The position numbers and the translations under genes are program-made. The notes beneath the pieces are model-generated. The model was not told the DNA's origin. It made no database searches and saw only the letters and a list, made by a program, of their open reading frames with translations. 61,221 bases of DNA from a virus (taxonomy: Duplodnaviria; Caudoviricetes): positions 1 through 61,221 of the IMG/VR virus record IMGVR_UViG_3300049790_000015; one strand, written 5' to 3'. Shown here piece after piece: positions 2,814 through 57,059 of the stretch (position 1 is its first letter; each line of letters starts with the position of its first letter).

Positions 2814-2990
2814 ATGGAGAACCTCACCACCACCGAGCGGATGGCCCTCGCCGAGCTGGCTTCGAACGCGCTCTGGACCCACGACCCCGCCGAGGTCCCG
2901 GAGCTTGACGCAGCCCTCCGGACCGCGCTGCCGAAGCTGCGTGGCCAGGCCGCGACCCCCGAGGCCACGGCGGACGTCAAGCGCCGGTAG
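2814..2990 (+). CDS. Hypothetical protein, 58 aa (not in ORF track)
   Basis: MENLTTTERMALAELASNALWTHDPAEVPELDAALRTALPKLRGQAATPEATADVKRR; RBS, promoter and downstream hairpin. Confidence 0.75.
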   Translation: MENLTTTERMALAELASNALWTHDPAEVPELDAALRTALPKLRGQAATPEATADVKRR

Positions 2991-3069
2991 TTCCGCCTCG
3001 ACCCGCGACCCCCCGACCCGAAAGGGAAGGGGGGTCGCGCTATGTCCAGGCTCCGGTGCCGAAGCCCAC

Positions 3070-3107
3070 TTGCCTCCGTGGCACGGCCATGATTTAATGG
3101 AATTACA
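3070..3107 (+). promoter_or_regulatory. Family A promoter
   Basis: TTGCCT-ccgtGGCACGGCCATGa-TTTAAT. Confidence 0.85.
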
Positions 3108-3144
3108 GACGGACGCGAGGTCCGTCCCGCGAGAGGAGCAGAAC

Positions 3145-3837
3145 ATGGCGATCACCTTCCAGGCCGGGCGGAACACCAGCGACGCGCAAGCTGCCCTGAT
3201 GACCCGCCTCGTCAGCGAGAGCCCGAAGGTCGCAGCCCTGGTCGACACGATCGGCGAGAGCATGACCGAGGGCAAGACCCGCCCGATCCGGACCTGGACC
3301 CCCCGCGAGGTCCGCGCGCTGATCGACCTGATGATCGCCACGTCGAACACCGACCCGGCTCGGGTCGAGACCCGGATCACCCCGAACCGCTACGCCGGGG
3401 CCTGCGCGGACTGCAAGGGCAACGTCGAGGTCGAGGCCGGTCGGGTGCGCAAGGAGAACGGCCGCTGGGTCACGCGCCACCTCGACGGGCAGTGCCCCCC
3501 GAAGGCCACCCCGGTTGAGCCGGCCGCGCGGCTGCAGGGCAGCCCGGAGGGCTTCTGGACCCTGGACGGCCTGCACTTCAAGGTGCAGCTCGCCGTGCAC
3601 GGCAGCGGCCGTCCGTACGCGAAGGTCCTGGACGAGGACGGTACCTGGACCCGCGACGACCGGACCCGGGGCGTGCTGGCTCGGATCCAGGCCGGCGAGG
3701 CGACTCGGATGACCAAGGACGAGGCGGGCGCGCTTGGCCGGCTCTACGGCCGGTGCGTTGCCTGCTCCGCGACGCTCACCGACGAGACGTCGATCGAGGT
3801 CGGCATGGGTCCGATCTGCCGGGGCAAGTTCGCCTAA
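3145..3837 (+). CDS. DUF6011-like zinc-binding domain protein
   Basis: C-terminal RCVACSATLTDETSIEVGMGPIC motif; central CADC. Confidence 0.75.
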   Translation: MAITFQAGRNTSDAQAALMTRLVSESPKVAALVDTIGESMTEGKTRPIRTWTPREVRALIDLMIATSNTDPARVETRITPNRYAGACADCKGNVEVEAGRVRKENGRWVTRHLDGQCPPKATPVEPAARLQGSPEGFWTLDGLHFKVQLAVHGSGRPYAKVLDEDGTWTRDDRTRGVLARIQAGEATRMTKDEAGALGRLYGRCVACSATLTDETSIEVGMGPICRGKFA

Positions 3838-4356: not shown

Positions 4357-4439
4357 AACCGCCCCCGTGAGCCCGCTTCCCGACCAGGGGGGTGGGCTCG
4401 CGGCTTGTTTGGGCGTTGTGCGAGCCGGCCGCCTCGGGC

Positions 4440-4477
4440 TTGCCAGGGCGACACGGCCATGGTTTAATAGAGGTACA
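4440..4477 (+). promoter_or_regulatory. Family A promoter
   Basis: TTGCCA-gggcgaCACGGCCATGG-TTTAAT. Confidence 0.85.
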
Positions 4478-4514
4478 GGGGCGGACGGGACCGCCCCCCA
4501 CGAGAGGAGCCAAA

Positions 4515-4859
4515 ATGGCCGAGACCACCGCCTCCGCGAAGTGCCGCCGTTGCGGGCGCAAGCTCACCTCGGCTGCGAGCGTGGCGCGGGGTCTCGGCCC
4601 GACCTGCGCGAAGGCGGTCAGCAAGACCGACCTCGGCCGGCTGGACCCGTGGCAGGCCGCGCGGGTCGCCGCGATCTTCCAGACCGGCGTGGTCGAGATC
4701 GTGAAGTATGGCAACACCCGGGTGGTCAAGGTGCAGGAAGCACCATACTTGACCGACTGGGCCGACCTCGACGAGTGCGGCTGCTCGGAATTCCGCCACG
4801 AGGGGGCGTGCCCGCACTTCGGCGTCGCCCAGATCGTCCTGGCGGGCCGCGCGGCCTGA
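4515..4859 (+). CDS. DUF6011-like plus SWIM-type zinc finger protein
   Basis: CRRCGRKLTSAASVARGLGPTC and CGC...CPH motifs. Confidence 0.75.
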   Translation: MAETTASAKCRRCGRKLTSAASVARGLGPTCAKAVSKTDLGRLDPWQAARVAAIFQTGVVEIVKYGNTRVVKVQEAPYLTDWADLDECGCSEFRHEGACPHFGVAQIVLAGRAA

Positions 4860-11225: not shown

Positions 11226-11431
11226 CGTGTCCCCCCGATGAATCGCTTCCGGACCCAGAACGCCGCGATGGTGAGTCCGAATGCAGTGTACAGGCCGGCG
11301 ACCACGCCGTATGTCACGTCCTGTCGGTCGATCGAGGACCACACCCCAATTGCACCCCACGCGATGAACCACGTGGCGATAATCGCCTCGATCGCGAGCC
11401 CGATCCGGGTCGGCTTTCCCTTTTGTGTCAC
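11222..11431 (-). CDS. Small two-TM membrane protein
   Basis: 69 aa; two hydrophobic helices; coupled to the polymerase stop. Confidence 0.7.
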   Translation of the reverse strand: MTQKGKPTRIGLAIEAIIATWFIAWGAIGVWSSIDRQDVTYGVVAGLYTAFGLTIAAFWVRKRFIGGTR

Positions 11432-13467
11432 AGTCTGGCCCCTTCTGACTCCAATGTGATGTCGGTCCCGCCCACTACGTCAAACATCGCCTCGAACAGA
11501 CGGGCGCCTTCCTTCGCGATGTCCTCGACCCGCCACTCCTCCCCGTGCGGGACCTCCAGGTAACACGCGTCGTGCACCCAGTTGACCAGGATGCCGGGGT
11601 GGCTGTCCTCGACGTACAACATCCACTCGGTTCCCAGTTCGGCCAGGCTCGCTTGCACGAACCGGTTGAAGGCTTTGTGCAGGTCGTGGGCGCGCTCGTC
11701 CGGGAGGAACCAGCACAGCCGGCCGTTGATCAGCCGGACGTACCCGCGCTGCTCGGCCGATTCCATCGCGGCCATGACCGCATGCCGGAACTCGGGGTAC
11801 AACTCGTACTTCCACTTTGACACCATCGGCTCGATCTTGGCAAGGGGCCACTCGATGCCGATCTTGCTCAAGCTGGCTTGGAACGTCTTCGCCCCGACAT
11901 CGAAGATCAGCGAGAAGTTGCCTCGCTTCGCGACGTTCCGCATCATCTTCCACTCGGGCGAGTCCGGCGTCACCCCGAACAGCGACGTCGCGGTGATGCC
12001 GTGCGCGTCCGCGCCGGAGGTCACCAGGTCGAGCATGCGTGGGCAGGGAGCCCACCGGGCGGCCACTCGCAGTTCGGCTTGCGCGAGGTCGATCGAGTAG
12101 AGCGAATGCCCCGGCGTCGCGACAATGCAATTGTGGATCGTCGGGCAGCCCGAGGGCAGCCGGTCGGTGAGCTGGTAGTCGTTGGGGATCGCCTGCAGGT
12201 TCACCCGCGAAACCGAGGTCCGGCCGCTCCGCACGCTGGTCTGGTTGAACGACTGCCGGAGCCGGCCGTCGGAGCCGACCATGCCCGGGTATGCCTCGTA
12301 CCACTTCGACAGCGCGTCGTCCAGTTGCTTCCACAGAAAGTAGTCGGCCGCATGCGGTATCTTCCGTTTCGCCATCTTCCGGGCGATCTCGGCATCGAGC
12401 TTGGGCTTGCCGGTCTCGGTCGTGTCCAACGGCTCCAGGCGCGGCCCGTTGCCGCCCGGGTTTCCGGCTGGATCAAACCAATACCGCTTCGCATGATTCA
12501 AGTTCAGGTCGTTTCCGGGCTGCCCGGGCCGGAAGCCGAACGGCAACCGAGCCGCGACCTCGGACTTATATGCGTGGATCTGCGCGGCGCCCTCCAAGCA
12601 TTTCTGCGCGTCGAATGGCATGCCGCGTCGCTCCATCAAGTGCAACACCCGTGCTTTGCGGAACTCGCGCCGGATCCAGCCCTCGACCTTGCGCCGGTCC
12701 TCCTCGCAGTGATCGCGCCACTCGGCGAGCTTGCGCGCCTGCAGCACCCGCTCCCGCGCGGTCAGTTCCGCGTCGAGCGTCGCGTACCCGCGCATCAGGT
12801 CCCACTCAACCAGGTCGTATCGCTTCGGGAGCTTGCGCTTGGAAAGCGCCGCGAGGTCGCGCTTGAGCCGCTCCTCGTCGTCCTTCTCCATCCCGGCCTT
12901 GTACCCGCCTCGGACCTGCACTAGGTCGGGGGTGGTCCGCCAGTTCGCGGGGTCAAGCGCGCGCAGCCTGACGGCCGCCTCCTTGAGCGCCGGGCTGTAG
13001 GTCGGCCAGATCTCCTTGTTGGCGATGATCACGTCCCACACGACCTGGTCGAACAGGTCGAAACTGCCGGACCATCCTGGCCTGTCTACCCCGACTTCCA
13101 TCACAGTGCTGTCGAACGTCGCGTTGGCCATGACCAGTTTGCGCCTGTCGAGCCACACCCACAGAGCGTCCCACTCAGACCGAGGCAGGCAGAACGGGCC
13201 TTCCTGCTCCCAGAGCGACGCCTGCCCGGTCCATTCGCGCTTGTGCTGGGTCAGGCCCTGGTTGAACGGGAACGCGGCCGTCTGCACCCAGTCGGGTTTG
13301 CCCGGGATGAACCAGGCCATGGTGACTGTGGAAACGCGGGCGCCATCGTCGACGTGCAGGCCCGAGCCTTCTGTGTCTAGGCTGATTTCGACGTAGGGCG
13401 GCAGGTTGGGCAGGTCCGACGGCCGCTCGATCACAGGCAGCATCGCGGCCGGTAGCGCGGTGGCCAT
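11428..13467 (-). CDS. polA: Family A DNA polymerase with 3'-5' exonuclease (DpoZ candidate)
   Basis: Exo I LDTEG; SGRTS..NLQAIP; motif A DLAQAELR; motif B RNVAKRGNFSLIF; motif C VHDA. Confidence 0.95.
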   Translation of the reverse strand: MATALPAAMLPVIERPSDLPNLPPYVEISLDTEGSGLHVDDGARVSTVTMAWFIPGKPDWVQTAAFPFNQGLTQHKREWTGQASLWEQEGPFCLPRSEWDALWVWLDRRKLVMANATFDSTVMEVGVDRPGWSGSFDLFDQVVWDVIIANKEIWPTYSPALKEAAVRLRALDPANWRTTPDLVQVRGGYKAGMEKDDEERLKRDLAALSKRKLPKRYDLVEWDLMRGYATLDAELTARERVLQARKLAEWRDHCEEDRRKVEGWIRREFRKARVLHLMERRGMPFDAQKCLEGAAQIHAYKSEVAARLPFGFRPGQPGNDLNLNHAKRYWFDPAGNPGGNGPRLEPLDTTETGKPKLDAEIARKMAKRKIPHAADYFLWKQLDDALSKWYEAYPGMVGSDGRLRQSFNQTSVRSGRTSVSRVNLQAIPNDYQLTDRLPSGCPTIHNCIVATPGHSLYSIDLAQAELRVAARWAPCPRMLDLVTSGADAHGITATSLFGVTPDSPEWKMMRNVAKRGNFSLIFDVGAKTFQASLSKIGIEWPLAKIEPMVSKWKYELYPEFRHAVMAAMESAEQRGYVRLINGRLCWFLPDERAHDLHKAFNRFVQASLAELGTEWMLYVEDSHPGILVNWVHDACYLEVPHGEEWRVEDIAKEGARLFEAMFDVVGGTDITLESEGARL

Positions 13468-47931: not shown

Positions 47932-49296
47932 TCACATCCAGCGGACGTTCGGGCGCACGCCGAGGTCGATTTCCGCGACGAAATACCGCATCGCGTCCGC
48001 CCCGTGGTCGTGCAGTTTCAGGGGCATGTCCCGCTCAACGGTAGCACCACCCGGGTTCGCTTTGAATGCCCAGACATACGAGGGCAGTTCGTCCTGCGTC
48101 GACGTCGGGAGTTTGTTGTCGAGGAGCGCGGGATCACGGCGCACCACCGCGTCCCGCATAATGAAGATCCGGTCCTCTTTCATCCGGACCTGCACTGCCT
48201 CGATGCCCTCGGTCACGGTCTTGAACGCGGCTTCGGTCGAGATCCCGATCTCACGTTCGAGCGTGGCCCTGCCTTCGGCGTCGTGGTCGCACACTATCCA
48301 TTGCGGCGTCGGTTCGTGCCAGATCCGGCCCTGATATGCGTACCGGTCCTCTCCGGCGGGGTGCACGTAATCCGGGTCCTCGTCCGAGACCAGCGCCATG
48401 ATCTCCTTGGCGTGGTCCTCGACGATGCGATTGGTCATGTATATTTCGCGATACAGGATCAGCCGGCCGTCGGGGTCTTGCGCCCAGAACTGGCAAACGA
48501 ACGGATTGCGGTACCCAAAGTCGATAGACCAGAACCGAGGCCAGTCGTCCGGGATCTTGACCTGGTTGATGAGGTGCTTTCCCTCGTCCCAGTCCGCGTA
48601 CACGATCCCCTCGGCTGCCGTCCATTTGCCCTCAAGCAAGCGCAGCCGTCGGACGCCGGTCAGTGCCTCCAGTTTCGCGAAGTAGTCGGCTCCGATCGCG
48701 GTCGGGGTCCCGTCGAGCCGCATGTACGCCGGGTTGTCGACATGACGCGAGATCAGGATGCGGAGCTTGCCGGTCGCGGCCCGAAACTGCATCCAGTGCG
48801 TGGGTGCGTTCGGATTGCACGCCCCGACTAGCTGGGTCCACCCGCGCACGTAGTTGCGGAGCCGCGTGTTTGCGTACTCCCAGTCCTGCTCGGTCAGCTC
48901 GGTCGCCTCGTCGACGAAGATCATGTCGTATTCCGATGACATGATCTTCTCGGGCTTGTCCATCCCGCCCACGACGATCGTGCTTCCGTTCGAGTACCGG
49001 TAGGCGGCCGGCTCCTCGCCCGAGCCGCCGTACCAGGTCACGGTGCCGTTCGCCAGAGCGCCCGGGATGACCTTGTTCTTGAACGTAACGAGCGTGGTCG
49101 CGGTCAGCGACACGTGGGTTTTCCGCAGGACGAGCCCGCGATAGCCAGGTTGCAGCAGGCAAATCAGGTGCAGCCGGAACAGGCAGACCACCGACTTGCC
49201 GGTACCGGCCGGTCCGGAGATGACCACCTCGCCCGAGTGGTCGGTCATCAGGTCCCGTGCGGCGCCGCGCGTCTCGAACCGCACGAGTTGGGTCAT
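47932..49296 (-). CDS. terL: Terminase large subunit (PBSX/SPP1-like)
   Basis: GPAGTGKS, FVDEATE, CNP, IDFGY, DHGADAMRY. Confidence 0.93.
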   Translation of the reverse strand: MTQLVRFETRGAARDLMTDHSGEVVISGPAGTGKSVVCLFRLHLICLLQPGYRGLVLRKTHVSLTATTLVTFKNKVIPGALANGTVTWYGGSGEEPAAYRYSNGSTIVVGGMDKPEKIMSSEYDMIFVDEATELTEQDWEYANTRLRNYVRGWTQLVGACNPNAPTHWMQFRAATGKLRILISRHVDNPAYMRLDGTPTAIGADYFAKLEALTGVRRLRLLEGKWTAAEGIVYADWDEGKHLINQVKIPDDWPRFWSIDFGYRNPFVCQFWAQDPDGRLILYREIYMTNRIVEDHAKEIMALVSDEDPDYVHPAGEDRYAYQGRIWHEPTPQWIVCDHDAEGRATLEREIGISTEAAFKTVTEGIEAVQVRMKEDRIFIMRDAVVRRDPALLDNKLPTSTQDELPSYVWAFKANPGGATVERDMPLKLHDHGADAMRYFVAEIDLGVRPNVRWM

Positions 49297-49586
49297 CCGA
49301 GGTACGCCCCCGGGCGGAGAAGCCACACCATGTCCGCGCCCGCTGGAGTCCCGAGGACCACCAGCACCTCGTCGAGCAGGCCGTCGACCCGCGTCAACTC
49401 CGCCATCGCAACCGGGGCGTTGAGGTGCCCCCGCGCGTATGCGTAGGAAGCGCCGTGCACCTTGAGCGACTTCACCAGCCGGACCAGCACCCGATGTATC
49501 TCGTCTTCGGACGAAAACAGCTCGATCGGGGGGACGCTCGGGTCTGGCTCCATCGCGTCCGGGCGCCGTCTCTTGTCACTCCGCAT
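49293..49586 (-). CDS. Hypothetical protein
   Basis: Coupled between terS and terL. Confidence 0.55.
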   Translation of the reverse strand: MRSDKRRRPDAMEPDPSVPPIELFSSEDEIHRVLVRLVKSLKVHGASYAYARGHLNAPVAMAELTRVDGLLDEVLVVLGTPAGADMVWLLRPGAYLG

Positions 49587-50181
49587 CGTCGCCCCCGGGT
49601 AGTTCCGGCGGGCCGACCGGCCCGTTTCCGAGCTGGCCTTCGATCACCTCGTCCGGACGAGCCGGACCGAGCAGCGCCCCGACGTCGACCCCGAGGACCT
49701 CATACCGCACGGTCTCGACCTGGATCTGGTGCTTTGCGGGCGCGTTCAGTCCGAGCAAGGCGGCTTCCTGCCGGTCGATCGCGAGAATCCGGTCGATCGC
49801 GGACAGGATCGGCCCGGCATCTTGCATCGGTTTGCCGTCGGGCGTGTCCGGAGTCACCGAATCCGGGTCGATCACGACCTTCCCATTTTGCGATACCGTG
49901 GGATGGTCCGCTTTGAGGATCTCGTACGCCGCGCGCCGGAGTTCCGCGAACCGATCGAGCTGCTCGGCTCGGTATGCGTTGATCTCCGCAATCGGGATCT
50001 CGCGCATTGCCTTGTAGTAGATCTCCCGAGCCCGGTGGCCCGAGATCCCATACTGCGCGCCGATCGTCTCGAAAGTGAGGTGCTCCTTTTGGCGCAACGA
50101 CACGATACCGAGCTGCCGCTCTTCGAGCTGGTGGGCCGACAGAGTGCCCCCACCCGGGTTAACGTCCGGATTCCACGCCAT
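49576..50181 (-). CDS. terS: Terminase small subunit
   Basis: N-terminal HTH (TFETIGAQYGIS); AIDRIL..ALLGLNAP; upstream of terL; TTGCTT-N17-TACGCT promoter just before the ATG. Confidence 0.75.
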   Translation of the reverse strand: MAWNPDVNPGGGTLSAHQLEERQLGIVSLRQKEHLTFETIGAQYGISGHRAREIYYKAMREIPIAEINAYRAEQLDRFAELRRAAYEILKADHPTVSQNGKVVIDPDSVTPDTPDGKPMQDAGPILSAIDRILAIDRQEAALLGLNAPAKHQIQVETVRYEVLGVDVGALLGPARPDEVIEGQLGNGPVGPPELPGGDDAE

Positions 50182-50232
50182 GATCCGAGCGTACCGGGCG
50201 GGCACGCCCCAAAGCAAGGTCGACATACAGCG

Positions 50233-50271
50233 ACGCCCCGCCCTCCCAGGCCCGGTAGGAGGACGGGGCGT
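50233..50271. terminator. Hairpin terminator after the nucleotide metabolism cluster
   Basis: gacgccccg..cggggcgtc. Confidence 0.55.
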
Positions 50272-50284
50272 CTGTCTGTGGGTG

Positions 50285-51214
50285 TTACTTGCCGGACGAG
50301 CCGAAGCCGTTCGAGCCCCGAGCCGACGGCGCCAACTCCGGCACCTGAACCGGCGTGAGACCGGCGGCCAGCGCGGGAAGCACGATGAACTGCGCGATCC
50401 GCTCCCCCGCCTCGATCACGACCGGACGGTCGGTCATGTTCTGGCACGCCGCGAAGTAGGTGCCCCGGTAACCCGCGTCGATGATCGAGTTGACCACCAG
50501 GAGCCCGCGCTTCCGGATGGTCGACGACCGGCCGGTGATCAGCGCCCACGTACCGGCCGGTAGCTCGACTGACACCGCGCACGGGACGTCGACGAACGCC
50601 GGATTGACGACGTCCGGGTCGTCCGACGCCGAGCCGCGCGCCGGGATCTCGGTACGTTCCGAGACGTACAGATCGAATCCGGCGTCATCCGGGTAGCCCT
50701 GGCTCGGCATCCGCCCGCCCGCACCGACCAGCACCGGGAGCGGCGCGGTCTTGTTGAGCGGGTTGGCCGCCTCCTTGAACGCCGAGATCAGCGCGTCACT
50801 GAGATCCTCAATCTCGGTGATCACCGTGCCCAGGTCGCCAAAGAACGCGACGTGCCCCGGCGTGTGGTCCGAGTAGACAATGACCGGCGTGCCGGTCTGC
50901 TTCGCCTGGTAGATCTCCGCGACCACGCCGATGGTCGGGATGTCGTACGGCAGGACGGCCACCAGGACGTCACACTGAGAAGCCGCGTAGCGGCAGACGT
51001 CGCGGATGGTCCGCATCTGGTCGTCGGTCATAAGCGGCGGTCGCTCGTCGCCGAACCGCCCGCTCCCGCTGACGATCCAGGAACGCCCCGGGTCGTAGAC
51101 CACGGCGCCCAGGTTCTCCAGCTCGGTCCGAGCCGCGTTCACCATCGAGACCACGCGCATGCTGGCCATGCGGCCCCGGACCTGATCTATTGGGTAGGCC
51201 AAGTACACTGTCAC
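50285..51214 (-). CDS. dut: Fusion: nucleoside 2-deoxyribosyltransferase/N-glycosidase-like domain + trimeric dUTPase-like domain
   Basis: N-terminal VYLAYP..DVLVA..GVVAEIYQA..PVIVY; C-terminal DAGFDL, GRSS, IDAGYRG, GERIAQ, RGSNGFGSSG. Confidence 0.85.
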   Translation of the reverse strand: MTVYLAYPIDQVRGRMASMRVVSMVNAARTELENLGAVVYDPGRSWIVSGSGRFGDERPPLMTDDQMRTIRDVCRYAASQCDVLVAVLPYDIPTIGVVAEIYQAKQTGTPVIVYSDHTPGHVAFFGDLGTVITEIEDLSDALISAFKEAANPLNKTAPLPVLVGAGGRMPSQGYPDDAGFDLYVSERTEIPARGSASDDPDVVNPAFVDVPCAVSVELPAGTWALITGRSSTIRKRGLLVVNSIIDAGYRGTYFAACQNMTDRPVVIEAGERIAQFIVLPALAAGLTPVQVPELAPSARGSNGFGSSGK

Positions 51215-51765
51215 TGGTGCTGCTCTCCTTCTCCGGCCGGTACCGGCCGCTTGATGACGTCCGCCGGAAGGCGGATGCCGTTGTCCTGCAGGAACACGAC
51301 GAGCGCCCGCTCGGTCTCGGGGTCGGGCGGTCCCCAGATTCGGAACTTCACGCCCGGCTCGCGGTAGGTGAGCTGGGACCCGCGCTGCTCGGGCGACAGG
51401 ACCGTGACTTCCGCCTCGCCCCCGACGTACAGAAACCGGACCACCCTGCGGTCCCGCCAGGTGCGGGGGTGGGACAGCACGACCTGATCCGCGCCGGGCG
51501 GCTCGATCTCGTTCTCGCGCCACCGGACCCAGCCGGCCGCCTCCAACGTCAACTTGAGCGCGTGACCGAGGTCGATGGCGAACTCGCGAGCCGCCTCGGT
51601 CGCATTTGCGGACGCGGTGAGTTCGGCCCACCGCTCGGGGTCGGTCTCGGCCATCTTCCCGTACAGTGGCATTGCCTGCGCCTTCCGGAGAGCCGCCGTG
51701 GTCCGGCGGCCAGCCGGCCGCGAGGTCTCCCCCACGGCCGGCTGGTTCTGGGTCGTCTCGGTCAC
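51211..51765 (-). CDS. Hypothetical protein in the purZ cluster
   Basis: Translationally coupled on both sides. Confidence 0.6.
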   Translation of the reverse strand: MTETTQNQPAVGETSRPAGRRTTAALRKAQAMPLYGKMAETDPERWAELTASANATEAAREFAIDLGHALKLTLEAAGWVRWRENEIEPPGADQVVLSHPRTWRDRRVVRFLYVGGEAEVTVLSPEQRGSQLTYREPGVKFRIWGPPDPETERALVVFLQDNGIRLPADVIKRPVPAGEGEQHQ

Positions 51766-52502
51766 TCGGGCCATCCGCCGAACTCCCGGATCCGCGCCAG
51801 CATGGTGCTGTAGATGCGCAAATCGAAGATCGTGTCCGGGCTCGGCTCCTTGCCGTTCTGCCACGCGGAGAACAGCCGCCCGACCTTGCCGAGTAGGTAG
51901 AACGCAACCGCGATCTCCTGCCCGATCCGGTCGAGGTCGGCACCCTCCGGCATCGGGTAGGCGGCCACCAGCGTGCGCCCCATGATCTCCAGGTCGTGGC
52001 TGCCGTACTCGGCCGTCTTCGGGGCAGTCTTCTCGATGTCGGTCTCGGTAAGCCGCCTCCACCACGGCTCCAGGTCGTTGGGCAAGTCGCCCGGGGCGAA
52101 CTCGGCCATCAGCCCTCTCAACATCGCGTCGTCCAGCCGGCCGCCAGCCTGCAGCACCTTCCGCACCTCGGACGCCACCGCGTCCAGCTCCGGCCGGCTC
52201 ACGCCCTGCGGCAGGTCCTCCGGGTAGGAGCACATGTCGCGGTGTCGCTGACCGTACCGGGTGCACTGCGCGTTCGCGCATCTCGGGGTCTGGCCGATGT
52301 CGTCCGGCTCCGGGTGGCCGGTGACGTTCCGGTCGATCCGCGTCTCGCGGGAGACCGCCGGATGCGGGCCGGTCGCTTCCCGCGCGGCGCGCTCGATCGG
52401 GCCGGTGTCCGCCTCGCCCGGAGGCGGGGTGATCGGAACGGGCACGAGGATGGCGCGCGTCCCCGTCCCGTTCACGCTGTCGAGGTCGGTCGGCCGCTTC
52501 AT
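51762..52502 (-). CDS. DUF1599/Nmad1-like all-alpha nucleotide pyrophosphohydrolase
   Basis: C-terminal KTAEYGS...GKVGRL...DTIFDLRIY; ATGA-coupled to purZ. Confidence 0.6.
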   Translation of the reverse strand: MKRPTDLDSVNGTGTRAILVPVPITPPPGEADTGPIERAAREATGPHPAVSRETRIDRNVTGHPEPDDIGQTPRCANAQCTRYGQRHRDMCSYPEDLPQGVSRPELDAVASEVRKVLQAGGRLDDAMLRGLMAEFAPGDLPNDLEPWWRRLTETDIEKTAPKTAEYGSHDLEIMGRTLVAAYPMPEGADLDRIGQEIAVAFYLLGKVGRLFSAWQNGKEPSPDTIFDLRIYSTMLARIREFGGWPE

Positions 52503-53605
52503 GTGCGAACGACCGTGGTGGGTCCGGTGCCGAGCAGGCTCGGCATGATCCCGAGCTGCTCCTGCACCTCCTCGCGGAGCCAGGTCCGACCGACGTCGGT
52601 CACGCGGTCCCACGTGGTGGCGCCCGCCGCGTCCGAGTCGATGTAGTCGAGCATCGTGATCGCGAGGTGGACCGACGGCGAGTTGATGCCGCCGTTCGCG
52701 TCGATCGCCTTGCGCACCAACTCAACATCCCAGCCACCGACCCGCCGCACCTTGTTGGTGACGGTGGTTCGCTCGGCGGGGAGACCGAGGTTGGCCCACG
52801 ACGTCTCGTCCTGCAGCTCGCCGGAGTTGCCGGCCACCCGGATCGGGTAGGTCCGCGCGACCACCCAGACGTCGAGCCCACGCACCCCGGACATCCATGG
52901 CGAGATGCCGGCCATCGCCAGGAAGTCGATCGCGCGAGCGTCCGACGAGGTGCAGTGCGGGTAGAACTCGCCGTGCAGGCCGAGTCCGAAGCCCTGCGTG
53001 CCCTCGATCTGGACCGTGACACCGGCCTGCCGGAGTGCGCTCCGGAGGATCTCCCCCGTGTCGACACGACCGCCGAACAGATCGGCCTGTCGCCAGATCC
53101 GCTCCGCCCGCGCGGCTCCGATGCCCTTCCCGGTCGACCCGATCTTCGCGGTGAGCCGCCTGGTCGCCTCCTGGTCCTTGTGGTCGTCGGTGATCACGGT
53201 GGCGCTCCGGTCGACGTACAACCGCGACGAGACGTCGTAGCCGGCCGCGTTCAGAGCCATGGTCTCGTCGTCGAGCACCTGTGGGTCGATTTCCGAGCCG
53301 GCCGCGATGATCAGCGCCGAGTTCGGCGCGGTGACGGCCGCGACCGGGATCGAACGGAGCTTCCACGGGTGCATCTGCGAGTCGAACGCGACCGCGCTCT
53401 TCGGGTTGTCGCGGCAGTCCGCGTTGTCGCAGACCAAGGGCCACGGGCACCGGCCGTAGACGGTGTGCCCCGCGTTCGGTCCGGCGACGCGCACGCCGTA
53501 CACCGCGAATCCGCTCTCCTCGTCGACCCGGGCAAGGTGCCCCGCGATCGCGCCCTTGCCCTCGGAACCGAACTGGCCGCCCACGACCACCTGGATCTTG
53601 CTCAC
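52499..53605 (-). CDS. purZ: PurZ0-type adenylosuccinate synthetase paralogue (candidate dGMP to dSMP, Z-base pathway)
   Basis: GGQFGSEGKG (Ser where PurA has catalytic Asp), GPNAGHT, GSTGKGIG, EGTQGF..YPHCTS, TTVTNKVRR, TMLD. Confidence 0.88.
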   Translation of the reverse strand: MSKIQVVVGGQFGSEGKGAIAGHLARVDEESGFAVYGVRVAGPNAGHTVYGRCPWPLVCDNADCRDNPKSAVAFDSQMHPWKLRSIPVAAVTAPNSALIIAAGSEIDPQVLDDETMALNAAGYDVSSRLYVDRSATVITDDHKDQEATRRLTAKIGSTGKGIGAARAERIWRQADLFGGRVDTGEILRSALRQAGVTVQIEGTQGFGLGLHGEFYPHCTSSDARAIDFLAMAGISPWMSGVRGLDVWVVARTYPIRVAGNSGELQDETSWANLGLPAERTTVTNKVRRVGGWDVELVRKAIDANGGINSPSVHLAITMLDYIDSDAAGATTWDRVTDVGRTWLREEVQEQLGIMPSLLGTGPTTVVRT

Positions 53606-53709
53606 TTGGTCTTCTCCTCTTTCTTCGGGTCCGCTCCGCCACCCTGGCCCGACCGAAGCTTCTCGATCAGGTCATTGACGTCCTTGCGGATCCGCTCTGG
53701 CTCTGCCAC
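53602..53709 (-). CDS. Small peptide, 35 aa (not in ORF track)
   Basis: GTG start after GAGGAG; stop overlaps the purZ start. Confidence 0.5.
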   Translation of the reverse strand: MAEPERIRKDVNDLIEKLRSGQGGGADPKKEEKTK

Positions 53710-53720
53710 CGCGTCTCTCC

Positions 53721-53816
53721 TCACTTGCGCCGGTTACGGCGCCTGCTTACCTTGCTGACTCTGCGGCGAGCCCGCCGCTGGTCCTTGGTTCTACGCACCT
53801 TCCCCGTCGGTGCCAT
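53721..53816 (-). CDS. Arginine-rich peptide, 31 aa (not in ORF track)
   Basis: MAPTGKVRRTKDQRRARRRVSKVSRRRNRRK; GAGAGGAGG RBS. Confidence 0.6.
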   Translation of the reverse strand: MAPTGKVRRTKDQRRARRRVSKVSRRRNRRK

Positions 53817-53932
53817 CTGCCTCCTCTCGTTCGACGAGCGCGCCCCCCGCCGTCACCACACGTGCGGGGGGCGCCTCGCCGATGGGTGGCGCCATCTGCA
53901 GCCGAGCCCGGGGGCTACACCCCGCCCCGGCT

Positions 53933-53970
53933 GCTAATACCAGTTAATCATGCCGGTGCCCTCTTGTCAA
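53933..53970 (-). promoter_or_regulatory. Family A promoter for the purZ operon
   Basis: TTGACA-agagGGCACcGgcatga-TTAACT. Confidence 0.75.
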
Positions 53971-53985
53971 GGCCAAGCGCGGTCT

Positions 53986-54687
53986 CTACAGGGCGTAGGC
54001 GTGGATCGTGTTCGCGGGCTCGGACAGACCGGCGTCCCAGGCAGCTGGCTTGATCCCGGTCAGCAAACCACGCTGGCCCATCACAAAATGCCACCAGTGC
54101 AACTGAGCGTCGCGGGCATGGACCGAGTTCCCGCACGGCTCGGGTTTCACGCCCATGCTGCGCAGGATCGATTGCTGGGTCGCCTTGATGCTCGGCTGCT
54201 GGTAGAACGGATAGATCGGCACTGCCGGACCACCCCCGTCCGGCAAGGCGCCTCCATTCTCGGCCGCCTGGCTGATCGCGTAGTCGACCTCCAGGTTGTG
54301 GTCCGCGACGAGCCAGCCCATCGCGCCGAGCAGCCGCGCCGTGTGCATCCGCGAGCCGGACTGCTGCATCGCCCGATCGGGGATCAGCACGAAGTCTTCC
54401 ATCACCAGGACGTCCACCCACCCACAGATCGCGAGCGACCGCAGGGTCAGCATCCACGCGGACGGCGTGGTCTCGAACGACACCAGTAGTTCGTCGTCGG
54501 TCACCGCCCCCTGACCGAGCCCGACCCCCGCCGCTACCCCCACGTGATCGTCGCCCGGGTCGACAGCCAACACGCGCTTACCGCCCGTAGCCTTGGCCGC
54601 CTCGACTATGCTTGCCAGCTTGTCAAGCGCCGCGTCAGCCCCCAACACACTCGCCGTGTTCGCCTTGCTACCATCCGCTCTCGGCAT
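53986..54687 (-). CDS. RuvC-like Holliday junction resolvase
   Basis: VLAVDPG..GVA, LVMEDF, HARDA. Confidence 0.7.
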   Translation of the reverse strand: MPRADGSKANTASVLGADAALDKLASIVEAAKATGGKRVLAVDPGDDHVGVAAGVGLGQGAVTDDELLVSFETTPSAWMLTLRSLAICGWVDVLVMEDFVLIPDRAMQQSGSRMHTARLLGAMGWLVADHNLEVDYAISQAAENGGALPDGGGPAVPIYPFYQQPSIKATQQSILRSMGVKPEPCGNSVHARDAQLHWWHFVMGQRGLLTGIKPAAWDAGLSEPANTIHAYAL

Positions 54688-54879: not shown

Positions 54880-55980
54880 CTACTGCTCCAGCATCCGCAG
54901 GTTGTCCCGCCAGCGGCGGGCCGACTTGCGGGCCGTGTCGATCTCGGACGTCCGGACGATCCCGCGCTCCATCGCGAGCCGGGCGAGGTCGCTCACCGTC
55001 ATGGTTCCCGTGACAACCGCCCGGATCTCGGTCTCCAGCTCCGCAGGGTAGCTGCGCCCGGGGGTGCTGGCGCGGCGCGGCAGGGCCGTGACGGTACTCC
55101 GCTGGCCCTCCGTCGAATCGGAGCCCCCGCCCGGGTACTCTCGGGGGGGTGCGGGCTCGTCGCTGTCCAGGAGGACCGTGGCGACGATCGGCGGCTCGGT
55201 TTCCGCCGGAGCCTCCTGGACCTCGCTGCGTTCGATGGAGATGGTCCGGCTGTCGACCGTGCGCACGACCACCGGGGCGGCCGGAATCGCCGTGATCGCG
55301 GAAACCGGGCGGGTCGCCTCGACCTCCAGCTCGCGGGGGTTGGGCGAGTCGAGCAGCGGCAGCGGGTCAGTGATCGCGAGGCCCGCCGCGCGCCATTCGG
55401 TGACCGCCCAGCGTCCGGCGAACACAACCCTCAGGACGCGGAGCGCCGGAGGCGCGACCTCGGCAGGCAGCCCGCGCTGGATCCGCACCCGAAGCCGGAT
55501 CTCGGCCAGGACCAGGTGGAACAGCCACATCAGGATCAGCGGCACCATGGCGGCCACGATCACGGCCGAGATGCCGCCGTCGCGGAGGTAGGCGCCCAGG
55601 CCGTTGGTCGAGGCGGATACCAGATTGATCGCGAACGAGAACATCCGGGCGGACGAGGACGCGCGGCCGGACAGCGAGATCGCGGTTGCGAGCAGAGCCG
55701 CCGCGAACATCGAGCCGTCCACGATCGCGGGCAGCGCGGCCGGTACCTCGAAGCCGAGATGGGTGGCCAGCCGCGCCTGCTCGGCGCACAGCCACGCGAC
55801 GCCGAGTCCCCACAGGGCGCCGATGATGCCGATGGCGACCCAGATGAGCCAGTGGACCTTGCCGGTGTCGACGACCTGCCGCGAGGCAAGCAGCCGAGCC
55901 CGCTGGTCGATTTCCACGCGCCGCGCCTCGTTTGCGGCCCGTCGTGCCTCCTTACTGGCCGGTTGGCCCTTTCCGAACAT
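54880..55980 (-). CDS. DUF2637/Spd-like multi-TM protein with C-terminal helix-turn-helix-like end
   Basis: About four TM helices; LPAIVDG, SASTN, AAMVPL pattern typical of actinomycete plasmid/AICE proteins. Confidence 0.65.
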   Translation of the reverse strand: MFGKGQPASKEARRAANEARRVEIDQRARLLASRQVVDTGKVHWLIWVAIGIIGALWGLGVAWLCAEQARLATHLGFEVPAALPAIVDGSMFAAALLATAISLSGRASSSARMFSFAINLVSASTNGLGAYLRDGGISAVIVAAMVPLILMWLFHLVLAEIRLRVRIQRGLPAEVAPPALRVLRVVFAGRWAVTEWRAAGLAITDPLPLLDSPNPRELEVEATRPVSAITAIPAAPVVVRTVDSRTISIERSEVQEAPAETEPPIVATVLLDSDEPAPPREYPGGGSDSTEGQRSTVTALPRRASTPGRSYPAELETEIRAVVTGTMTVSDLARLAMERGIVRTSEIDTARKSARRWRDNLRMLEQ

Positions 55981-56018
55981 CGCAGTCTCCTCTCACGGGC
56001 GCCCACCGTCGGGCGTCG

Positions 56019-56055
56019 GTAATTCCATTAAATCAGGTCCGTGCCCCCGAGTCAA
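56019..56055 (-). promoter_or_regulatory. Family A promoter
   Basis: TTGACT-cgggGGCACGGacctga-TTTAAT. Confidence 0.8.
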
Positions 56056-56091
56056 GTAGCGTCCGTCACATAACGGGCGCGAACCTCGTAC

Positions 56092-56129
56092 TTGACGTCG
56101 GGACACGGGCATGGTTAACTGGTCTTAGT
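56092..56129 (+). promoter_or_regulatory. Family A promoter (divergent)
   Basis: TTGACG-tcgggaCACGGgcatgg-TTAACT. Confidence 0.75.
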
Positions 56130-56164
56130 CGCCCGGCAGGCGGGCGCGACGAGAGGAACACAGC

Positions 56165-56308
56165 ATGGCGGACAAGCAGCCGAAGCGGACCGAGGGCACG
56201 CCCACGGGCGGCACGGCCGCCGGTTGGGGCAGCCAGACCGGCCAGCCAGCCGACTCGGACGGCTCGCGGGACCTGGTCCCGGGCGAGCACACCAGCGGCG
56301 CGCGGTAG
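56165..56308 (+). CDS. Small hydrophilic protein, 47 aa (not in ORF track)
   Basis: GAGAGGA RBS after the promoter. Confidence 0.6.
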   Translation: MADKQPKRTEGTPTGGTAAGWGSQTGQPADSDGSRDLVPGEHTSGAR

Positions 56309-56408
56309 GCCCAACTCCCATCCAACGGGGGCGGGTTCCTTCGGGGGCTCGCCCCCCTGGCATGTCCGAACATTCCCGCGCTCAAATCATCAGTGCTGCG
56401 CTCATCTT

Positions 56409-57059
56409 ATGACCACCGAAACCGAGCCCGCGCCGGACGGCGCCCAGGCTCCGCCCTCGATGCCCGCCCGGTTCCAGACCATCGTGGCCGACCCGCCGTG
56501 GCCGGTTTCGACCGTCGGCAACGGGAAGTACATGGAATATCCGCTGATGCCGTACGACTGGATCAAGGCGCTCCCGGTCGCGGACATCGCCGAGGACAAC
56601 GCCCACCTGTACATCTGGACGATCAACGCGGCGATCCCGCAAACATACGCGACGGCGATCGCGTGGGGTTTCCAGCCGAGCCAGCTCCTGACGTGGGGCA
56701 AGCCACCGCACGGGTCCGGGCTCGGCGGGGTGTTCGTCTCGACCTCCGAGTACATCCTGTTCTGTCGTCGCGGAAAGTCGGTCCACAAGGCGCGGGCGCT
56801 GTCGACCTGGTACGAGTGGCCGCGCCAGAAGCGACACAGCGAGAAGCCGCGCGAGTTCTATGACCTGGTCGAGAAGGTGAGCCCGGGTCCGTATGCCGAG
56901 CTGTTCGCGCGGACCGAGCGGCCAGGGTGGTTCGGTTGGGGCGACGATGACGGCCTGATGGCCCGGATCGGCATGCCGGCTCCGAGCCGCCAGGAGATCC
57001 GCGCCGCTCGCGTCCTGGAGGAGCAGGCCGCGTCCGGGAACATCGAGGTGACGGAATGA
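56409..57059 (+). CDS. MT-A70 family N6-adenine methyltransferase
   Basis: IVADPPW, LYIWT, SEYILF..RG, HSEKP, ELFAR..RPGW. Confidence 0.9.
   Translation: MTTETEPAPDGAQAPPSMPARFQTIVADPPWPVSTVGNGKYMEYPLMPYDWIKALPVADIAEDNAHLYIWTINAAIPQTYATAIAWGFQPSQLLTWGKPPHGSGLGGVFVSTSEYILFCRRGKSVHKARALSTWYEWPRQKRHSEKPREFYDLVEKVSPGPYAELFARTERPGWFGWGDDDGLMARIGMPAPSRQEIRAARVLEEQAASGNIEVTE

Follow-up and report, generated by a model that had tools for sequence, protein, structure and literature searches.

What does a protein in which an NDT-like domain is joined to a dUTPase do inside a purZ cluster? The question is raised by a gene of the uncultured virus record IMGVR_UViG_3300049790_000015, a linear sequence of 61,221 bases (CheckV 100% complete, G+C 67.7%) that was analysed over its whole length and is called the window in the following. 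The observation itself, an NDT-type domain fused to a dUTPase within a purZ cluster, was confirmed by the folds of the two halves, by most of the catalytic residues, by the placement of the protein in a PurZ-linked clade and by the gene context (Table 1). On this combined evidence the gene product is probably a DmtZ-DutZ fusion, the enzyme with which PurZ0-type phages, writing 2-aminoadenine (Z) for adenine, purge the latter.

In the scheme that we propose, the C-terminal DutZ, with its homotrimeric dUTPase fold, would split dATP and dGTP (and dUTP) into a monophosphate and pyrophosphate, as judged from the homologues of phages Wayne and Ghobes; this step would clear dATP from the pool of the polymerase and would feed dGMP to PurZ. 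In the N-terminal DmtZ, Glu100, positioned by Tyr4, would attack dAMP, with Asp10 reading the 6-amino group, and either adenine and deoxyribose-5-phosphate would be released or deoxyribose-5-phosphate would be passed to the free Z base, giving dZMP. The polymerase would then meet dZTP rather than dATP. An earlier note on this DNA had proposed, before any database was consulted, that the dUTPase half takes the triphosphates to dAMP or dGMP and that the NDT half removes adenine or exchanges bases, which coincides with the published biochemistry of the homologues (PMC12884076). The two-step idea is in fact already known from a paper of February 2026 in Nucleic Acids Res (PMC12884076), in which Poubanne et al. 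characterised gp53 of Arthrobacter phage Wayne and named it DmtZ-DutZ. As reported in the main text of that paper, the C-terminal domain of the Wayne protein (DutZ) turns dATP, dGTP and dUTP into monophosphates, with a kcat of 16.4 s-1 for dUTP vs 5.9 s-1 for dATP, and DmtZ releases adenine from dAMP and is also able to transfer deoxyribose-5-phosphate to the Z base. The biochemistry covers the Wayne fusion and the split DmtZ and DutZ of Gordonia phage Ghobes, and a survey of 98 PurZ0 genomes in the same work found dutZ in 98 and dmtZ in 85, with 77 of the latter fused (PMC12884076). Independently, a 2025 preprint (10.1101/2025.10.22.683976) tied an NDT and a dUTPase to PurZ phages without DatZ; its text describes an enzyme, NDT-M2, which works on nucleosides and not on monophosphates. 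For the window protein, the two-step scheme is, as a prediction, supported by homology and gene context.

The relatives of the protein among phages were searched by tblastn against 50,697 phage records; 661 of these gave a match, 111 covering at least 80% of the query, and among the matches listed those with at least 80% coverage belonged to Arthrobacter phages, at 34–38% identity. Wayne gp53 was aligned over residues 2–309 (35.7% identity, E 4e-51). When the N-terminal 155 residues were used alone, 112 phage records were retrieved, distributed among phages of Arthrobacter (105), Streptomyces (4) and Gordonia (3). At the DNA level, a near-identity search of positions 49500–54000 against the phage collection gave no match, and there is therefore no cultured close relative.

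The catalytic assignment depends on where the protein begins. The start of the gene overlaps, as GTGA, the stop of orfB, the second of two open reading frames (ORFs), orfA and orfB, that lie between purZ and the fusion, and all four genes run on one strand with stops overlapping starts. The same gene appears in record P0002 as a 294-aa product, covering 95% of the 309-aa reading, and the 15 residues that it lacks (51170–51214, minus strand) would include Tyr4 and Asp10. We take the 309-aa reading, already adopted in the earlier note, to be the right one because the 15 lost residues would hold Tyr4 and Asp10, which are kept in frame among the homologues. Automated start calls may conceal the DmtZ site in further records as well.

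The N-terminal half has the NDT fold, as shown by structural alignment and by a profile search. The AlphaFold2 model of the fusion, built with 120 homologues, reached a mean predicted local distance difference test score (pLDDT) of 90.3 and a predicted template modelling score (pTM) of 0.73, and its weak parts were only residues about 51–60 and the C-terminal tail. In a search independent of Foldseek, residues 1..150 of the model were aligned to the NDT structure 6evs_B with Z 16.0 (root mean square deviation 2.7, 131 residues aligned), followed by other NDT structures (7m5h, Z 14.8; 7o62, 14.5; 1f8x, 14.1) and by MilB (4ohr, Z 13.8), while generic Rossmann-like and TIR rows did not exceed 11.3. 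A profile of 18 N-terminal domains matched the solved chains of NDT, Rcl/DNPH1 and MilB with E from 6.5e-6 to 7e-4. The elements of the NDT signature that had been read from the letters alone (YLAYP, DVLVA and GVVAEI) are all present, and the fold that they had suggested is borne out by these profile and model alignments.

The residues of the active site were then compared with those of Ghobes DmtZ, for which the importance of Y6, D12, P57, G99 and E103 was shown by mutagenesis; there, as the main text states, E103 is the nucleophile with Y6 as its partner, D12 reads the 6-amino group of adenine and W124 is a lid Trp supplied by the second monomer (PMC12884076). The equivalence was derived through the Ghobes relative Sapo, with a numbering shifted by 2, and maps Y6 to Tyr4, D12 to Asp10, P57 to Pro42, G99 to Gly96 and E103 to Glu100 of the window protein. 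Among the 120 full-length homologues, Tyr4 is kept in 119, and Asp10, Pro42 and Gly96 in all 120; Glu100, which the earlier note had singled out as the catalytic Glu, is likewise invariant (120/120). Also the uncharged pocket for the 5'-phosphate is kept, with Ile9, Gln11, Ile95 and Gly96 in the window matching V11, Q13, V98 and G99 of Ghobes; over the same 120 proteins these columns hold I in 116, Q in 86, V or I in 96 and G in 120.

The gene context also counts in favour of the assignment. The PurZ of the window, 2-aminoadenylosuccinate synthetase, has Ser14 in the motif GQFGSEGKG, at the position of the catalytic Asp of PurA, and shares 41–52% identity with PurZ proteins from phages of Streptomyces, Arthrobacter and Microbacterium, against 27–33% with those from phages of Vibrio, Acinetobacter and Klebsiella, a ranking of similarities that fits the PurZ0 branch. 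Six-frame searches of the whole 61-kb record for the DatZ families (HD, YfbR-like and HD_3) found none, so that the description of the locus as a purZ operon without DatZ, with PurZ two genes upstream of the fusion, proved correct. In the same six-frame searches of the whole record neither DUF5664 nor DUF550 was found; the former search was positive in the control genome of Wayne, whereas the latter had no match in the control genomes either and, having no positive control, is the weaker negative. The candidate DpoZ-1, a family A DNA polymerase, matched 143 phage records at E ≤1e-20, all of them actinophages (Arthrobacter 105, Microbacterium 18, Streptomyces 12, Gordonia 6, Micrococcus 1 and Curtobacterium 1), including Wayne gp47 with 34.6% identity, and nearly all of these records belong to genera that also gave PurZ matches, an overlap established at the level of genera.

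The association with purZ, which the earlier note had suggested as a check, was examined in metagenomic loci. We fetched 80 IMG/VR loci by the dUTPase patterns of the fusion and scanned their six-frame ORFs with hidden Markov models built for this work. PurZ was present in 30 of the 80 loci, and a DmtZ domain was detected in 24 of these 30, in 17 cases within the same open frame as DutZ, against 3 of the 50 loci without PurZ (L021, L031 and L085), all three at contig ends.

The C-terminal half was recognised as a dUTPase by several methods. The Pfam dUTPase model PF00692 matched residues 168–308 (E 4.4e-21), the whole protein matched the dUTPase family phrog_135 of PHROGs (E 3.5e-37), and the Foldseek list for the fusion model was dominated by dUTPases, with E about 1e-11. 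Residues 156..281 were aligned to trimeric dUTPases with Z from 16.2 to 13 (24ok, 16.2; 3zez and 7pwx, 14.9), and thus the modelled dUTPase half has a fold of the trimeric type. The five motifs read in the window (DDAGFDL, GRSS, IIDAGYRG, GERIAQ and RGSNGFGSSG) are all present, as had been claimed, and their core residues are invariant in 120/120 homologues. The further claim that motifs 2 and 3 are altered held up only weakly: they differ from those of the solved Chlorella-virus dUTPase (PRSG and IDSDYRG), at non-catalytic positions only, and GRSS and IDAGYRG are the norm within the clade of the window protein. That clade was seen when a maximum-likelihood tree was quickly built from 83 dUTPase domains, with L002, L012 and L082 excluded; all the PurZ-linked rows (34/34), the window included, fell on one side of a branch with a Shimodaira–Hasegawa-like approximate likelihood ratio test (SH-aLRT) value of 91, and 43 unlinked rows fell on the far side. 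The window dUTPase is nested with L010, L024 and L009, and PurZ-linked dUTPases have also been reported to be monophyletic (PMC12884076).

The grouping bears on whether the protein could be an ordinary housekeeping dUTPase that excludes uracil from the phage DNA, with an N-terminal domain that is an accessory unrelated to adenine exclusion. We consider this very improbable. The five canonical motifs are intact, the nearest solved structures are bona fide dUTPases and Wayne DutZ keeps a high dUTPase activity (PMC12884076), all as such an enzyme would have it; but the dUTPase half groups with the PurZ-linked enzymes and apart from the 43 phage dUTPases that are unlinked, all matches to the N-terminal domain came from actinophage groups that carry PurZ, the gene is translationally coupled inside the purZ cluster, and the genome gave no match to another enzyme that removes dATP among the families searched (DatZ, DUF550 and DUF5664). 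The assignment to DmtZ-DutZ is preferred on these grounds.

Several points weigh against that assignment. On the dUTPase side, 6 rows without PurZ in their locus fall on the PurZ-linked side of the tree (3 of the 6 at contig ends), the branch of the clade is backed by SH-aLRT alone and comes from a quick search, and activity on purines is not readable from the letters of the protein, because Wayne DutZ itself prefers dUTP by kcat. On the side of the N-terminal domain, the Pfam NDT model PF05014, at residues 24–118, scores under its own cut-off (E 0.0034; 18 bits, cut-off 28.8 bits); the NDT assignment is nevertheless confirmed, since the profile matches and the structural Z scores are stronger tests than Pfam. 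The remaining points lie in the active site. The third residue of the triad, Asn77 in Ghobes, near-invariant among the homologues and Asp in most NDTs, is Cys74 in the window (codon TGC); the Pro of the GVPxE motif, present in 115/120 homologues, is Val98; and the lid Trp is absent, its place being taken by Gly120/His121.

These substitutions are not equally telling. In the column of the triad Asn, the 120 homologues have N in 116, C in 2, T in 1 and H in 1, and the second Cys belongs to P0003, the closest relative, 70% identical to the window protein; in a more diverse set of 18 DmtZ domains, N stands there in 17, the window being the exception. The same column is aligned with the catalytic Asp of the solved cyanobacterial NDT (CtNDT). 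Asp72, tried as a stand-in for the triad Asn, was rejected, since in every alignment the spacing to the next strand fits Cys74. In the lid-Trp column the 120 proteins have W in 90, Y in 14, F in 10 and G in 2, and this Trp is not invariant among the diverse DmtZ domains either, so that it is a weak criterion. The combination of Cys74, Val98 and lost Trp is common, among the 120 homologues, only to the window and P0003. A loop insertion of 14 residues at about residues 50–63, of low model confidence, is also found in P0003, and an insertion of 12 aa at residues 194–205 of the dUTPase half occurs in 4/120 homologues, namely the window and three relatives.

The glycosidase half of the window copy may thus be slower or differently tuned; the activity of its NDT half is less certain because Cys replaces the triad Asn and because, in Ghobes DmtZ, the N77D change lowers kcat/Km about 100-fold (PMC12884076, Table 2). 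In its stronger form, the DutZ half would work as in Wayne and the N-terminal domain of this subclade would be attenuated or retuned, cleaving dAMP poorly, having a different substrate (dZMP, dGMP or a nucleoside) or serving mainly as a structural or regulatory appendage. We regard this as rather unlikely, although it draws on the Cys74, Val98 and Trp changes, limited to the window and P0003, on the 14-residue loop and on the loss of activity in N77D. Moreover, DutZ alone suffices for some PurZ0 phages, as the survey counts of dutZ (98) and dmtZ (85) indicate (PMC12884076), 6 of the 30 PurZ-linked loci collected here are without DmtZ, and NDT-M2 offers a related enzyme that acts on nucleosides and not on monophosphates (10.1101/2025.10.22.683976). 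By contrast, the remaining residues for catalysis or binding, Tyr4, Asp10, Pro42, Gly96 and Glu100, are all intact, the Cys has persisted although the two proteins that have it differ at 30% of positions, as fits a working site under selection, and the N-terminal domain is confidently folded in the model. A working DmtZ-DutZ remains the preferred reading, and the window protein is, judged by its residues, a Cys74 variant of the known DmtZ-DutZ and not a plain member; we file it as a variant because one named triad residue differs.

A comparison with the known systems places the protein closest to Wayne gp53 (ALY10777.1). The two have the same order of domains, NDT-like and then dUTPase-like, and similar lengths (307 aa, PMC12884076, vs 309 in the window); in both genomes the fusion is found downstream of purZ, which is of the PurZ0 type and shares its strand, the family A polymerases are related and DatZ is absent; and the active-site Tyr, Asp, Pro, Gly and Glu of DmtZ are common to both, as are all the dUTPase motifs. 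Besides the distance in sequence given above, they differ in that Cys74, Gly/His and Val98 of the window stand for the Asn, the lid Trp and the Pro, that the loop at about residues 50–63 and the 12-aa dUTPase insertion occur in the window alone of the two, and that the space from purZ to the fusion is occupied by DUF5664 in Wayne and by orfA and orfB in the window. The Ghobes DmtZ and DutZ (AOE44404.1 and AOE44406.1), compared through gp53 and gp55 of Sapo, are homologous domains in which the mutated Y6, D12, P57 and E103 have their counterparts in the window, and Sapo also has an orfA-like gene straight after purZ; unlike the window protein, they are encoded by two genes, not fused, and have Asn and Trp at the positions of Cys74 and Gly/His.

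More distant are Rcl/DNPH1 and MilB, which are N-glycosidases of 2'-deoxynucleoside or nucleoside 5'-monophosphates, and the NDTs of types I and II, with the same fold and the same Tyr...Glu arrangement of the nucleophile; at 13–21% identity, they have Asp at the position of Cys74 and are stand-alone proteins with neither a dUTPase fusion nor a linkage to purZ. The systems of S-2L, phiVC8 and SH-Ab 15497, in which DatZ is accompanied by MazZ (or DUF5664-DUF550), resemble the window system in what they achieve, removal of dATP and supply of dGMP for PurZ (PMC12884076), but their folds are unrelated (an HD phosphohydrolase and an all-alpha MazG-like protein), and none of them was detected in the window genome.

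The two genes between purZ and the fusion raise a question of their own. Neither orfA nor orfB belongs to a Pfam or PHROG family, and for orfB no homologue was found at this position in Wayne, in Hiyaa (gp68 compared) or in Sapo (gp52 compared), nor by tblastn in the 80 loci. For orfA, instead, the C-terminal ~120 residues have homologues in the C-terminal parts of gp68 of Hiyaa (E 1e-15) and gp51 of Sapo (E 7e-16), which occupy the same gene position. A profile of this domain, searched against 1.84 billion representatives, retrieved 927 clusters (50% identity) at E ≤0.001, 679 of them at ≤1e-10, with the conserved patterns K..EYG..DL..MG, G.E.A.AFY.LGK..R and G..PS.DT..D..Y..M..R..G.W, and its model (pLDDT 92.4) consists of four main helices. 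The domain was found in 20 of the 30 PurZ-linked loci (among L006–L085), and also at L002:4651-5910 and L003:3977-4621; in all the 20 it sits between PurZ and DmtZ/DutZ, except in L019, where PurZ is on the other strand. When loci were retrieved by the orfA domain alone, PurZ was just upstream and DutZ downstream in 9/9, two of the nine being contigs already found in another search. In the position of orfA, 3 of the 30 PurZ-linked loci have DUF5664, as in Wayne; 7 have neither gene within the locus, and the idea that orfA and DUF5664 are strict alternatives holds only partly.

No family could be assigned to the orfA domain by the searches made. Thirty members scanned gave no Pfam family and no informative PHROG; Pfam, run on all 140 members of the alignment with E values up to 1 allowed, gave no consistent family (YqeY 7, DUF6378 4); the profile found nothing relevant among PDB sequences; Foldseek on the model returned nothing at E ≤0.001, with iMazG chains at E 3–4 and DCTPP1 at 5.3; a VIA-align wide search of the model had a best Z of 6.9, for helical hairpins only; and an Atlas search retrieved only viral hypothetical clusters, one of which had DUF1599 on 14% of its members. 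A relationship to DUF5664 or MazG-like proteins was unsupported (hhalign against Wayne DUF5664, probability 0.1–0.2), and 'MazG-like' is for orfA a hunch. At residues ~70–95 of orfA (about 52220–52295, minus strand) there is a Cys/His pattern, C..N..C..YG..H....C, in which Gly84 and His87 do not vary in Hiyaa, in Sapo or in any of the metagenomic relatives; from this pattern, the Cys/His part is possibly a small zinc-binding element.

An orfA-type gene did not come up in keyword searches of the text of PMC12884076, and may be drawn in its figures or supplements. The domain may be a new enzyme of the nucleotide pool or a regulator of PurZ or DutZ. We put forward, tentatively and with less than even confidence in the whole, the joint proposal that the orfA domain is an unrecognised third component of the PurZ0 module and that the Cys74 proteins are a small DmtZ subclade, perhaps with a different leaving-group chemistry or specificity; neither the component nor a Cys-for-Asn subclade of DmtZ was found in the literature searched. 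The purZ-linked orfA domain is a better lead than the fusion itself.

Table 1. Positions of the fusion gene, its domains and the associated genes in the window.
Feature	Position	Strand	Remarks
dmtZ-dutZ fusion gene	50285..51214	minus	309 aa plus stop; GTG start at 51214
DmtZ-like NDT-fold domain (predicted), residues 1-150	50765..51214	minus	Model, structure alignment, profile search, residue conservation
DutZ-like trimeric-type dUTPase domain (predicted), residues 156-309	50288..50749	minus	Pfam, motifs, structure alignment, tree
Shine-Dalgarno-like GGAGAAGGAGAG	51223..51234	minus	3' end 8 nt before the GTG start of the fusion
orfB, 187 aa	51211..51774	minus	Overlaps orfA by 13 nt and the fusion start by 4 nt; coupled at both ends
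orfA, 246 aa	51762..52502	minus	Cys/His-containing N-terminal part and C-terminal helical domain of about 105 aa
PurZ (2-aminoadenylosuccinate synthetase), PurZ0-like	52499..53605	minus	phrog_1211, E 4.4e-78; two genes upstream of the fusion
Family A DNA polymerase, candidate DpoZ-1	11428..13467	minus	PF00476, E 6.2e-35

Outside the cluster, some features of the window were also recorded. Packaging genes adjoin the Z cluster at 47932–50226 (minus strand), where a 216-aa Sigma70_r4 ORF (phrog_645) and the large terminase are located. The distance from the Z cluster to the polymerase is about 37 kb in the window; the purZ cluster of Wayne comes immediately after its polymerase gene. An MT-A70 methyltransferase (PF05063, E 4.4e-17; 55932–57059, plus strand) is encoded 2.3 kb away from purZ, on the strand opposite to it. 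MT-A70 proteins are a family of N6-adenine methyltransferases, and an adenine methylase is odd if, as predicted, the phage DNA contains no adenine; likewise, Sapo has a methylase annotated near its Z cluster. In the poorly annotated left arm, DUF6011 domains were found in two plus-strand ORFs, at 2905–3837 (E 2.7e-9) and 4392–4859 (E 2.4e-13).

As to its meaning, the window would add to PurZ0 phages a divergent example of DmtZ-DutZ, from an uncultured phage of high G+C content, and it leaves the knowledge of Z-genome biosynthesis unchanged; the reasoning of the earlier note, from the letters alone, reproduced a result published in 2026. The natural Cys at the triad position, whose importance the published N77D mutant had shown, is a ready-made test of the role of that residue. 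If the orfA domain proves to be an enzyme, a step or a regulator of the pathway has been missed, and both details, Cys74 and the orfA domain, bear on the engineering of Z-containing DNA in bacteria.

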